Positions 23,056-51,968 of a DNA stretch of 64,000 nucleotides are shown here, one piece after another (position 1 is the stretch's first letter; every line of letters begins with the position of its first letter). The notes under the pieces were generated by a model. It saw only the letters and a list, made by a program, of their open reading frames with translations. It ran no database searches and was not told the origin of the DNA. Both the position numbers and the translations under genes were made by a program. The stretch is taken from the NCBI GenBank assembly GCA_964016885.1, contig OZ024742.1, forward strand, positions 8,370,001-8,434,000, written 5' to 3'. Source of the stretch: Eledone cirrhosa. Taxonomy: Eukaryota.

Positions 23056-23113
23056 GGAACGAGTAGGACCCCGACGGGTGAACTTCAGCTGTTTCGACGG
23101 CTAATTCTGGACC
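23056..23113 (-). mobile_element. Family C fragment
   Basis: GACCCCGACGG...GTTTCGACGGCTAATTCTGGA between (TA)n tracts. Confidence 0.8.
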
Positions 23114-24011
23114 ATATATATATATATATATATATATATATTCTATATGTATTCTATCCAACGTTCTAACGACTCTTCCAATTCACCGCCTGTAGAGGTA
23201 TATTCCATCCTATGGGGACCTAAAATATAACCGGTTAAATGTCTACTTGGAGTGACAGCCTTATTTATTCTCAAAGTATTGAAGTACGGAACAAAATAAA
23301 CCTAGATCTTTATATTTATGACTAACAGAAATGTCTAGTCAAGTTGATTTGAGTACATTGTAAATAAATTGTTTGTTTGAAAAACTCCTTTGTGAATTGT
23401 GCTTAATATTAGCTTTTGGAATGTTATTCACCCCCCACTCTCTATGTTTCTCATTCTTTCTTCCGCCTCTCTCTCTCTCTCTCTCTCTCTATATATATAT
23501 ATATATATATATATATATATATATATATATATATTTATGTATATATGTACATATGAAAATATATGTGTACGTATCTATGTATGTGATTTAGTATATTTGA
23601 ACTAATCGATTATAGGAATTTTATTGAACTGAATGTTTGCAACACTTCAGTTGAAATAAGTTGTGTTTGGTGCAACCCAACTTTAACATTAGTCTGACTG
23701 TTGCAGTTGATTCTCGTTGTCTTCTTCGTTTTATCTTGTTTATGGGTATTTGCACATTCATTTGAGCAAGAGTGTGTACCTCTCTCTCACATCCACTCTC
23801 TATCGCTCTTTGACTTGTGTCAGACGTTGTAACCCAGGATGTACAAGCTGTACCGTTGGTAGTCCATGTCACCGGCCGAGGAACCTGAACATCTGTGTCT
23901 ATCGTTTGTATTTCTATTTTCAAGAAATAATTTTTAAGGTTTCCCCTTAAAAACAAAAAATGTTTTTCTTTTGCCTTGTTTTCGTTCGTTGCCTTGTCCT
24001 CTCTTTGTTAA

Positions 24012-24415
24012 CCAGGAGCTGATTATACAGAACGATTGGCGGTCTTCTAAAATTTCTAATTAAGCATATGGTATATTGCCAAATATACTATACATTCATT
24101 CATGTATACATCACTATTTCAGAGCACCAATCCTAATACCTAATTTTTGCTGAACCGGCAATCGCTCTGTATAATCAGGTCCTGATTAATACTGGAATTC
24201 TATAAGAATTCAGCTTCTATAATTTTCGGCGGAAGCATGAGAGTGCGTGGCTCTGATGAACACCAGCCAGCGTGAAACAGACTGTCGGCAACTCTGCCTT
24301 CTTTCGCAGAAAAGAAGTGACATAGTCACTACTTTTATACTGGTAGCGTATGGTCTTCTAAATGTTTTAATTAAACATACGGTATATTGCCAAATATACT
24401 ATACATACATTCATA
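24012..24415 (+). mobile_element. HHR element with 311-nt monomer, about 62-bp direct repeats and a short 5' inversion
   Basis: GGTCTTCTAAA...CATTCAT occurs at 24041 and 24352. 24013-24042 is the reverse complement of about 24155-24184. Confidence 0.8.
24250..24289 (+). ncRNA. Minimal type I hammerhead ribozyme
   Basis: GCT-CTGATGA-ACACCAGCCAGCGT-GAAA-CAGACTG-TC-GGC. Canonical core with GUC site. Confidence 0.8.
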
Positions 24416-24810
24416 TATATATATATATATATATATATATATATATATATATATATATATATATATACAAGGGCCTTCTTTCAAGGGGGTACCAGGGGAC
24501 AAGGCCCCACTTTTTCAAACGTCTATATTTCATTTTTTGCTTATTTGATATAATACATTCTTTTTAAGTTTATTTGTTTTATATCTGAACTTCATTTGAA
24601 TATATCAAATTTAATTACCGTAAAATTTTGCTTATGTGATAGGGTCCAGGAAAGGCACCATAGGCAATTTATTCTCCTTTAAGAATCAACAAATGCTGGC
24701 TTGTTCCCCTCACATTTTTGAGACAAACGAGGCTCCTGTATATATATATATATATATATATATATATATATATATATATATATATATATATATATATATA
24801 TATATATATA

Positions 24811-25010
24811 TAACAAAGGAATTGTGGTAAGGAACCAGATGGACCATAACGCACCAGAGTACCCAATACTTAGGGTAGTAGAGTGGAAAATAGGAAAAAG
24901 TATGACACCGACGGCAGAGCTCAAGCCGTTTCGACGGCTATTTCTGGACTATCCAGAAATAGCCGTCGAAACGGCTTGAGCTCTGCCGTCGGGGTCATAC
25001 TTTTTCCTAT
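24811..25010 (-). mobile_element. Family C fold-back element (half hammerhead)
   Basis: Palindrome apex CTGGA-CTA-TCCAG near 24950, with GAAACGGC...GCCGTC-GGGGTC. (TA)n on both sides. Confidence 0.9.
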
Positions 25011-25019
25011 ATATATATA

Positions 25020-25160
25020 AAGGAACCAAATAAATATATATATTTTTAAAAAAAATAAGACTCCAGTTGCATTTTCGATTTCATCTTTTTTTCTTTATAC
25101 TTTCACTCGTGTAGGACACAGGTTATTTTTCATTTTGTAAAAAAAACCTCACTTTCTAAT
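25020..25160 (+). mobile_element. Copy of the post-cleavage-site tail of the 29397-29650 element
   Basis: Near-identical to 29501-29641. Confidence 0.85.
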
Positions 25161-48615: not shown

Positions 48616-50517
48616 TATGGATTTATATATTTCTCTCTCTCTAAATATAAATGCGTATGTGTGTGCGTGCATTCGTGCGTTTGAGTGTGTGTTTGTGTGT
48701 GTGTGCCTGTAAGTGTGTATGTGCGCGTGCATGCGTACGTGTCTGTGTGTGTATTGTTTATACATATGTATGTAAAAATATCGAATAATAGAGTTGGAAA
48801 TCGCTCAAATCTAATATTCTTAGATTATATGAAGAGAAAGGAGAGAAATGCTTGGTAAAATCTTTCTCCGTTGATTCTGTACAATATTAGTTGCAACATT
48901 ATTAACAAACGAAGCTTTTTTTCTTTAATTTCCAGTTCATTGTGAAAAACGTTATTGACATAAGCTGAGCAATATTGGAACTAAAGCATCTGAACATGTG
49001 ACAAAAGAATCTACTGTTAAACAAAATAGAACGAAACGGCCAGAATAGAAGACTGTTGTGGTAAACAGTAACATATAAATTGTCGACAACCATAAGTAGC
49101 GACAATAAAGAACACAACAAAGGGTATACAACCAATATAAAAGACTATGAATATCTACGAAAACACATGTGCTTAAAGCACGTGCCTATATAGAGGGGAA
49201 GCGGGGCGTCGTTGTAATAGGGAAAACATTGTAGATCTGGTAAGGGTTTATTCTAAAGTTGAAAAAAGGAAATTAGCATTGATTTTTTTTTCTTTTTACA
49301 TTGTAGGTAAATTCCACGATATGTAAAAAAAAAATAAAGCAATAAATACTAAATAAATTTAACCTAAAATATAACCAAAATATTCCTGACTCAATTTCCC
49401 CGAATCCCTGCCGAACACATTTGATAATGGATAAAAATCCGAAATGTTTTGGGACTTATAAATTTCTAAAGTAACTTTCAATCAGTCTTTATTTGGTATA
49501 TGAAGGCTAAAACAATATGAAAATGGAATTAAATAATACCACAAGGTATGTTGTCCCTACTTCTACGATTCTGCCAATCATTCCGCTCTATATAAAATAA
49601 GAAGTAGATGGTGGCATCGATGTAATAGACAATACTTTAGAGAATTATGCTGTGGCATGGCCAAATTTCAATGGTTGAAACGAGTGAAACAAGAAAGGAG
49701 ATTGTATAAAACTGAAAAAACGTCTGTGTCATTCAGTCCACAGAGACAAACCTCAGTAAATAACAAAACCCTTACCCAGCAGTTTGTATTCCCTTTTCTC
49801 ATATATCTATATTGGGCCTTCCTCTCCTGTCGCGCTCTTTCTCTTTCTTTCGTTCTTTATTTCTCCCTCTTGCTCTATCATATTCTCCTTTTCTCTTTCT
49901 CTCTCGTTATCTCATCCTATCTAGGCCCACACCTACGTCTCTATTTCTCTACCCTAAATTACCTGCCACCTTCACCAATTTAATCCACAGGTGTGCTTTT
50001 CCTGCTAAGATGGTGGAAATACTGGCGGTGATGGAAGGTGTGAGGTCTTCCTCTGCCTATAAAGGTGTGACAACCAAGTAGTCCTGCTTGATTGATGGCC
50101 AGATGGTGTGTGTATGTGTATGTGTTTGTGGCGGTGAGATGGGGGCCATTTTTGATTATCACCCCCATCATTCCAACATCAACCCTATAACACCACCACC
50201 CGGGGTTTCGTGTCACCCTGCCTTTGTTGATAACTCCGAGACACACCCCTTTCTAACATGAAATACTTAAACATTCTGACCCCCTTTTTCAATAGTCTTC
50301 ATTCTTTCTACCTTTGTTATTTATCACCATTCTTCATGTCCCTTCTACATATTTTACTTTATATCCTCTCTTACTTTCTTTGTTTTACTTCTTTCATGTT
50401 TTTTTTGTACCATTTTCATTTATTTTTTCCATTCTTTCCTTCCTCAATTTCTTTTGTTTTTCTTCTCTTCTTTCATTATTCAATATCTTTCCGTTTCCGA
50501 TCGTTAATCTTTTATTT

Positions 50518-50715
50518 CTACCAATATATCCACATGTGTGTCTACCTATATATCCACATGTGTGTCTACCTATATATCCACATGTGTGTCTATCTATATA
50601 TCCACATGTGTGTCTACCTATATATCCACATGTGTGTCTACCTATATATCCACATGTGTGTCTACCTATATATCCACATGTGTGTCTACCTATATATCCA
50701 CATGTGTGTCTACCT
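50518..50715. repeat. 24-bp minisatellite, 8 copies (CTACCTATATATCCACATGTGTGT)
   Basis: CACATG recurs every 24 bp from 50531 to 50699. Confidence 0.97.
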
Positions 50716-51085
50716 TTCTATGTAAACATGGAACTAGGCATCTAACGATATATTTATGTATCCTGCAGCCAACTATTCTTCTACCTATCTTCTCCCCTCT
50801 CTCTCTCCCTCTCTCTCTCTCTATATATATATTATATATATATATATTATATATATATATATTATATGTATATATATATATATATATATATATATATATA
50901 TATATATATATATATATGTATATATATATATATATATAGTATATATATATATATATATATATATAGTATATATATATAGTATATATATATATAGTATATA
51001 TATATGTATATATATATATATATATATATATATATATATATATATATATATATATATATATATATATATATATATATATATATAT

Positions 51086-51278
51086 AGGAACCAGTAAGAC
51101 CCCGACGGCTGAGCTCAAGCCGTTTCGACGGCTAATTCTGTTCAGAATTAGCCGTCGAAACGGCTTGAGCTCAGCCGTCGGGGTCTTACTGGTTCCTATT
51201 ACCCACTCTACTACCTCAAGTATTGAGTACTTTGGTGCGTTATGGTCCACCTGGTTCCTTACCACATTTCCTTCGTTA
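51086..51278 (+). mobile_element. Family C fold-back element
   Basis: Perfect palindrome of about 55-bp arms, apex AATTCTG-TT-CAGAATT near 51141, within long (TA)n. Confidence 0.92.
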
Positions 51279-51769
51279 TATATATATATATATATATATG
51301 TATATATATATATATATAGTATATATATATATATATATATATATAGTATATATATATATAGTATATATATATATAGTATATATATATATGTATATATATA
51401 TATATATATATATATATATATATATATATATATATATATATATATATATATATATATATATATATATATATATATATATATATAGTATATATATATATAT
51501 ATATATATATATATATAGTATATATATATATATATATATATATATATATATATATATATATAGTATATATATATATATATATATATATATATATATATAT
51601 ATATATATATAGTATATATATATACATATAATATATATATATATAATATATATATATATATATATATATATATATATATAGTATATATATATATATATAT
51701 ATATATATATATATATATATATATAGTATATATATATGTATTTATATATATATATATAGGATATATATA

Positions 51770-51968
51770 AAGCAAAGAAAGTGTGGTAAGAAACCAGGTG
51801 GACCATAATGCACCAGAGTACTCGATACTTAGGATAATAGGAAAATAATCAGGACCCCGACGGCTGAGCTCCGGCCGTTTCGACAGCTAAATCCGAACGC
51901 GGATGTGTTCGGATTTAGCTGTCGAAACGGCCGGAGCTCAGCCGTCGGGATCTTGACGCTTTTCCTAT
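51770..51968 (-). mobile_element. Family C subfamily fold-back element with a different apex sequence
   Basis: Apex GCTAAATCCGAAC GCGGATGT GTTCGGATTTAGC near 51901. Confidence 0.88.

Follow-up and report, generated by a model that had tools for sequence, protein, structure and literature searches.

The 64,000-nucleotide stretch of Eledone cirrhosa DNA analyzed here, referred to below as the window, contains ten copies of a short repeat, designated family C, that carry the 3′ half of a predicted hammerhead ribozyme on one or both strands. Family C copies are, almost beyond doubt, the 3′ ends of a Penelope-like retrotransposon that targets (TA)n. The palindromes that many of them form are best explained, at a probability that we put at roughly 55% from sequence comparisons, as pairs of cDNAs that were begun at two fixed start sites and that both ran off the 5′ end of a capped mRNA within stem II of the ribozyme. 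The initial annotation had proposed instead that a nascent cDNA snaps back on the stem II hairpin and copies itself, or that the half-ribozyme palindrome is itself the propagating unit. Known Penelope-like biology accounts for most of this abundant feature, as inverted truncated copies, one-sided tails, palindromic junctions, and U3-A8 cores are already in print; the rule of one start site per arm, together with a stop within the ribozyme at an initiator-like motif, was not found in the literature covered, which was mostly open access.

Family C derives from a Penelope-like retrotransposon

Genome-wide counts refer to the 3.0-Gb assembly, in which a 33-nt core of family C has 36,336 exact matches. 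Approximately one-third of 30 unselected loci extend upstream with a common sequence, via a 3′ untranslated region (UTR) of ∼1.2 kb, and reach a reading frame. In intact copies, this frame spans 784 codons of a 3,531-bp unit, and some arrays reach four units. What appears as a "tail" in the short copies is the start of the next unit, which in full copies continues into the frame. In an alignment, the frame has, in order, reverse transcriptase (RT) motifs (YRDD), a CxCX5C linker, and, at the C terminus, a GIY-YIG nuclease (VIY..YIG), with DKT, RWR, CxxC, and CxH motifs and no CCHH motif. The suggestion that the family C copies were retroposed is borne out. Other Penelope-like frames lie beside family C copies at L064:455-2596 (minus strand), L063:3793-5148 (minus strand), and L066:343-2039; one of them has an RVT_1 match, and two are related to the family C protein.

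By its predicted protein motifs, the family C element is a variant of the Hydra type. The frame at locus L062 had no match in Pfam, and the 2,216 homologues of the family C protein, the top ones 39 to 54% identical, carry no useful names, so the assignment to Hydra rests on motifs. The element has the traits of endonuclease-positive (EN+) Penelope-like elements, namely, one open reading frame (ORF) for RT and then GIY-YIG, tandem or partial-tandem pseudo-long terminal repeats (pLTRs), an inverted 5′-truncated copy, and a tail at one end. The portions compared of the description of the Hydra clade (Craig et al. 2021, PMC8557442) include this same RT–GIY-YIG order, an RW-basic motif (RWK, which reads RWR in family C), DKT, CxCX5C, no CCHH, and CxxC and CxH around a conserved E and N, all found here, as well as a (TA)n target, a hammerhead near the 3′ end, partial tandems, an inverted 5′-truncated copy, and a one-end tail. 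In contrast, the canonical CUGANGA hammerhead and the length described for Hydra were not found in family C. CUGANGA is present in the six Hydra hammerhead rows compared, whereas family C has U3-A8 (C3-A8 or U3-G8 in some copies), and the 3.5-kb family C unit with its 1.2-kb 3′ UTR compares with Hydra elements of generally <3 kb. Family C also has a stem II of ∼56 nt and a tail of ∼80 nt, compared to 30 to 40 nt in Hydra.

Other assignments were rejected. Naiad was dismissed because the nuclease is C-terminal. A non-LTR retrozyme, which according to the part of the source considered consists of non-coding tandem repeats with a complete hammerhead per unit (bioRxiv 10.64898/2026.07.22.740005), was dismissed because the short copies are head-to-head half ribozymes and the tandem units are coding. 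A miniature inverted-repeat transposable element (MITE) or DNA transposon was dismissed because the ends were asymmetric in 93 of 93 pairs and the parent encodes RT; target-site duplications are unreadable in (TA)n. The initial annotation had named terminal inverted repeats, along with target-site duplications, as marks of such a MITE; the asymmetric ends seen here are no such repeats.

The ribozyme has a predicted variant type I hammerhead fold

As had been proposed, the window copies share the 3′ half of a hammerhead, here of a predicted type I fold. The corresponding 5′ half was found in 3,714 genome copies, and short copies outnumber 5′-half copies by approximately 10:1. The 5′ half reads ACCCC-UUGANAA-G, with N free, and has CUGANAA or UUGAAGA in some subfamilies. 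A master with a 5′ half upstream therefore exists, as had been anticipated, but the predicted sequence, GACCCC-CTGANGA-GACGGCTA, had 0 matches, and the real form is ACCCC-YUGANAA-G. A search for CUGANGA within 8 to 38 nt of the core gave 68 matches, and the 30 loci inspected were unrelated junctions.

In 17 of 20 aligned copies, U3-A8 replaces C3-G8, with a C3-A8 mismatch in 2 and N7 free. U3-A8 is a known active hammerhead variant (PMC3088659, in the part considered). The type I core nucleotides are present (the 3-8 pair, G10.1-C11.1, GAAA, and the NUH triplet). Across 20 copies, 94% of the cells in stems I, II, and III are paired, and the least conserved helix is distal stem II (84% paired). 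At three pairs of stem II, the young lineage differs from the divergent one in both bases, which represents few independent events, and the young copies by themselves have no such covariation. The lowest-energy fold was hammerhead shaped in two of six copies. The sequence of the tail led us to discard a type II permutation, in which the core would lie downstream.

The predicted cleavage site, after C17, is crossed by nearly all copies, which suggests that the template was uncleaved or rejoined. A pile-up of 5′ ends at this site was not found among 82 tailed copies, approximately 1 of which begins there. A subfamily with the C3-A8 mismatch, predicted to be a poor cleaver, is common among the 5′-half copies listed (L083, L096, L106, and L183) and includes a 794-codon frame. 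At the centers of L005 and L016, the hammerhead 5′ half of a second family, described below, is joined in the same orientation to the family C 3′ half within stem II, giving a chimeric, ribozyme-like junction.

Insertions pair one tailed end with one short end

Family C has two 3′ ends, located 17 and ∼97 nt past the predicted cleavage site, both at TAT, which delimit the ∼80-nt tail. In short head-to-head pairs, one arm was tailed and the other was without a tail in 93 of 93 cases, compared to the ∼50% expected if the ends were independent, and there were no tail/tail pairs (0/93). The short class of arms in this count includes a few partial tails; an earlier subset had given 56 of 57 pairs plus one intermediate. 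Long composites in which both ends were visible also had one tailed and one short end (11/11), and the head-to-head layout was found at every length, up to several full units. The arm reaching further was the long one in 23 pairs, the short one in 22, and neither in 11 (56 pairs). Tail-only arms were joined to short arms in 13 of 13 cases.

The two arms usually belong to the same subfamily, with tags that differ by no more than 2 bases in 86 of 93 pairs. In one insertion, the two 3.5-kb arms differ from each other by 1 base and from other young arrays by 15 to 21 bases, and units within an array differ by 0 to 1 base; this near-identity fits one source RNA, either circular or multimeric. At three loci (L001, L011, and L028), a family C arm is joined to an arm of another family. 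The pairing rule is consistent with two priming events, each at one of the DNA ends, and probably arises in this way.

Arms stop on the 3′ strand of stem II

As the initial annotation had expected, the breakpoints collected were not randomly distributed; they concentrate in a zone 12 to 22 nt before GAAAC. Within 604 kb surveyed, 140 kb of which was chosen near known matches, 49 of 55 arms ended 2 to 24 nt before GAAAC and 6 ran through, and in the position-chosen regions alone 3 of 24 arms crossed the zone. An enlarged set, mostly composed of loci from match lists on one contig, comprised 307 arms, 244 of them without the 5′ half; of these, 238 ended no more than 26 nt from GAAAC, with 184 at 12 to 22 nt. 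These end classes were counted on fetched loci, not genome-wide. Arms that stand alone next to (TA)n have their stop in this zone too, and divergent-subfamily arms stop at the same place as young ones. In contrast, the zone was crossed by 18 of 22 arms that followed a full unit, versus 6 of 55 arms on the first pass (Fisher P = 4 × 10−9); three rows without a core anchor were left out of the former count.

The stop zone is the stem II 3′ strand below the natural loop. The earlier placement of the break near the stem II apex thus holds in that the junctions lie near the loop, but they fall just below it on the 3′ strand and not at the natural loop itself. There are 13,928 short palindromes genome-wide, and among 50 listed, the commonest junction form, judged by eye, occurred no more than 6 times. 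At L210:5074-5119, L226:2984-3042, and L215:3500-3546, the junctions repeat the 12 to 18 nt preceding GAAAC, as if the polymerase had realigned and recopied the template end (compare telomerase repeat addition). Both 3′ ends, and a step in depth close to the stop zone, were visible in four contig runs; contig depth is not copy number, the best-matching run may come from the source sample, and these runs were not used as support. No RNA run was among the sequencing runs listed as containing the element, a result that is neutral.

The stop coincides with an initiator-like motif

At position −18 relative to GAAAC there is an A within TTAGT or TCAGT (TYAGT), a motif that is kept in the young subfamilies and that resembles the initiator consensus. 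The young subfamilies have an AT-rich stretch ∼29 nt upstream of this motif. TYAGT is also kept in 18 to 19 of 19 divergent-subfamily copies, in which the loop region is different, and it is unpaired in the four predicted folds printed. Among short arms reaching −18, a non-template base at −19 was G in 19 cases and A in 5 (P = 0.003; P = 0.013 against control positions), and in some pairs a G is found at −19 on both arms. An extra G is expected when a cap is copied (cap-templated G). We lean toward reading the stop as the putative transcription start. The second family in the window has the same tail asymmetry and, in 10 arms, a sharp stop ∼120 nt upstream of its own canonical hammerhead; a stop outside the ribozyme indicates that such stops need not be ribozyme linked.

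A proposed model with two start sites and a transcript that begins within the ribozyme

In the model that we favor, a dimeric enzyme would cut both strands of a (TA)n target and prime one cDNA per start site. On an mRNA of unit length, these start sites would lie as close as 60 and 140 nt to its 5′ end, so that both cDNAs would be short and without the UUGANAA half. The two cDNA ends would then be trimmed and end-joined head to head. The templates for long and tandem copies would be read-through transcripts or RNA circles, in which the ribozyme is complete. Much of this enzymology resembles what is reported, in the portions considered, for a Penelope-like enzyme (PMC11167929) that cuts and extends both target strands, initiates at two internal sites that delimit the tail, depends on RNA downstream of these sites, is a predicted dimer, and uses uncleaved RNA as template. 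The Penelope transcription start has been placed in the pLTR (PMC2377424, in the part considered). The parts of PMC8557442 and PMC11167929 compared treat as an open question the way in which Penelope-like elements generate insertions that are inverted and tandem and have a one-end tail.

A more comprehensive version, which we put forward tentatively and hold with less than even confidence, is that the mRNA starts inside its own ribozyme, so that the half-hammerhead at its 5′ end cannot cut off the cap, and that read-through transcripts with the whole ribozyme become circles, which are then copied by a rolling-circle process. The dimeric enzyme would always write two cDNAs, head-to-head insertion would be the normal Penelope reaction, and the palindromes would be integrated strong-stop cDNAs that map the transcription start.

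Several observations weigh against the favored model. The stop is a zone, not a single base. Most of the sampled loci came from the match lists of one contig, and the position-chosen regions gave 24 arms, of which 3 crossed. Of 66 short arms reaching −18, 42 have T or C at −19, which are possible template bases, and 7 of the 19 G residues at −19 could derive from the partner arm. In the first 50 genomic loci with both arms reaching −18, the base at −19 was, by eye, T in 76, C in 11, G in 8, and A in 5 of 100 arms; the dominance of T implies that most such arms pass −18 and that the G excess is weak there. Tail-only arms could also come from later deletion, and the two arms of the L215 pair carry different subfamily tags. 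In vitro, start sites were used without a strand difference, and there was no homology at the start site, according to the part of PMC11167929 considered.

The nearest competitor retains two priming events but makes the stop a block: the enzyme or a host protein would hold stem II on a longer or circular RNA, and new cDNAs would stall at the top of the 3′ strand while an elongating enzyme would pass, comparable to a telomerase template boundary. A block accounts for the contrast between first and later passes, its position agrees with the upper limit in the young subfamilies (−21/−22), which coincides with the upper end of the 3′ strand of distal stem II, and several junctions (L210, L226, and L215) repeat the −12 to −1 segment as they would after a stall and realignment. 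However, the distal stem is the helix with the lowest pairing, TTAGTT in the divergent subfamily is unpaired in predicted folds while the stop is unchanged, and the G excess at −19 is not predicted. Furthermore, the portion of PMC11167929 compared places the RNA that the protein is inferred to bind downstream, within the ORF. A block seems to us unlikely, if still the most serious of the alternatives.

Fold-back of a single cDNA on itself, either by snap-back or by the antisense-template self-priming of PMC3846280, with the center later trimmed by palindrome repair, would suit the usual origin of both arms from one subfamily, and inverted-junction palindromes were so interpreted in the part of PMC3846280 considered. 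A few junctions do keep the natural loop or sit on natural micro-palindromes (L049; 6 of 50 junctions by eye). Yet in 22 of 56 pairs it is the short arm that extends further, and the arms do not overlap in the 13 pairs in which a short arm is joined to a tail-only arm, so that neither arm contains the other. Single arms at (TA)n stop in the same zone, three loci pair a family C arm with the arm of another family, and fold-back offers no reason why the copy should invariably stop at the inner TAT and in no case at the end of the tail. Snap-back on stem II, the mechanism first suggested, is disfavored by the junctions as well, since the left arm reads as the 3′ strand in reverse complement and not as the natural 5′ strand plus loop. 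We regard fold-back as improbable. Even less probable, to the point that we give it hardly any weight, is that the short palindrome itself propagates in the manner of a short interspersed nuclear element (SINE) or MITE, possibly cleaved in trans by full ribozymes. The abundance of short palindromes and their ∼10:1 excess over 5′-half copies would suit this, but the junctions are heterogeneous, with no form above 6 of 50, the short arms bear tags of several autonomous subfamilies, the ends are asymmetric and are not terminal inverted repeats, multikilobase insertions have the same layout, and the predicted cleavage site is the starting point of only ∼1 of 82 tailed copies. The second proposal of the initial annotation, that of a self-propagating half-ribozyme palindrome, is disfavored on these grounds.

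Comparison with known systems

In LINE-1 twin priming, two primers, from the two ends of the target, yield an inversion in head-to-head layout with microhomology at the join; it is occasional, with internal priming at variable sites and segments that barely overlap. In family C, by comparison, inversion is the rule and the two sites are fixed; overlap between the arms is usually ∼55 nt.

The Poseidon element PAc of Anolis (Frangieh et al. 2024, PMC11167929, in the portions compared) also has two internal RT start sites that bound a tail, a tail that is the start of the ORF region of the next unit, extension of both target strands, and an uncleaved RNA template. It belongs to another clade, and the family C start sites fall at TAT, which matches (TA)n over a short stretch; the parts of its main text compared do not deal with inverted insertions, with a rule of one site per arm, or with a 5′ stop site. 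The Cercyon Penelope-like element of Schistosoma (Cervera and de la Pena 2014, PMC4209133, in the portions compared) shares the U3-A8 core, an unpaired nucleotide at the stem II 5′ end, a palindromic loop 3, many single truncated motifs, and opposite-strand pairs 100 to 700 bp apart. Its ribozyme is minimal, with little or no helix III, whereas in family C stem III has 5 bp, stem I is extended, and stem II is very long, and a truncation hotspot at a half ribozyme is not described in those portions. The Penelope elements of Adineta vaga (Arkhipova et al. 2013, PMC3846280, in the part considered) have head-to-head inverted pLTRs with palindromic junctions, a tail on one of them, and a putative TATA box and initiator in the pLTR. 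Those elements are low copy and were interpreted as products of antisense-template self-priming, which the arm statistics of family C disfavor.

Family C copies and other elements in the window

All ten family C copies were present at the positions initially listed, and (TA)n flanks every one of them. A 34-nt anchor cut from the window had 13 matches in positions 16001 to 64000, compared to 0 in each of 20 shuffles that served as a chance control. The ribozyme 5′ half was absent from the window, in that there were 0 matches to the natural 5′ halves of 20 long copies. An Rfam search of the window gave no hammerhead among the matches listed (150 of 166), which were microRNA-type and other non-hammerhead families, all below gathering scores.

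Of six palindromes said to be centered on one point, five are clean head-to-head pairs. At 24813 to 25007 (center 24950), the tailed arm is on the minus strand (24813 to 24950) and the short-ended arm is on the plus strand; at 29927 to 30102 (center 29983), the short-ended arm is on the minus strand and the tailed arm, its tail slightly shortened, is on the plus strand. The pair at 44172 to 44370 (center 44232) is older and diverged. The pair at 51087 to 51276 (center 51141) is young, with a short-ended minus-strand arm and a tailed plus-strand arm; its GAAAC is at 51157, the predicted cleavage is after 51179, the short end is at ∼51196, and the tail end is at 51276. In the divergent-subfamily pair at 51770 to 51968 (center 51902), both arms terminate ∼17 nt short of GAAAC, and a few bases are inserted. 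The sixth palindrome, at 29703 to 29872 (center ∼29839), fits less well, as its tailed minus-strand arm is joined to a short-ended arm from which stem III has been deleted between short direct repeats.

The two copies described as starting or stopping at the common point are indeed single arms that end in the same zone. The one at 23056 to 23113 (minus strand) is short ended, without a tail, and its hammerhead 3′ half has a 5′ end that abuts (TA)n ∼19 nt before GAAAC; the one at 35653 to 35788 (plus strand) is tailed and starts ∼16 nt before GAAAC, right after (TA)n. The two copies described as rearranged, at 33560 to 33659 and 40891 to 40993, both of the divergent subfamily, consist of a short-ended core arm on the minus strand joined to a tail-only arm on the plus strand, and in the former the arms are nonoverlapping. 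TTTC is present where CUGANGA had been expected, as reported, but it is simply part of the inverted arm. Likewise, an apex sequence that differs between subfamilies while pairing is kept, which had been noted as well, is an automatic outcome of inversion.

The second family, which also targets (TA)n and has a canonical CUGAAGA hammerhead, is present at 52759 to 53377 and 57778 to 58217 as head-to-head pairs with the tail on one arm. A minimal canonical hammerhead motif on the minus strand at ∼53490 to 53525 ends a longer element that reaches ∼56885 and that, by eye, looks Penelope-like and of another family. A third family has ∼110-nt ends between (TA)n runs (16948, 17846, 20264, 20683, 41431, 52001, and 52589), with longer inverted forms at 52001 to 52637. 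Further long inverted pairs lie at 19030 to 19383, 27841 to 28944, 34337 to 34597, and 46474 to 47827, with CUGAUGA on both arms of the pair at 34337 to 34597. Positions 1 to 15978 are a strongly G-skewed satellite with 10-, 23-, and 33-nt periods.

Implications

Short palindromes in (TA)n can be the ends of retroelements and not MITEs or microRNA genes, and screens based on CUGANGA miss thousands of hammerhead folds in this one genome. Family C is a young, high-copy family with intact masters, and it offers a sharp rule of one start site per arm together with a mappable stop, both of which are testable. If the proposed model is correct, tens of thousands of half-ribozyme palindromes would map the transcription start of this Penelope-like element in genomic DNA.

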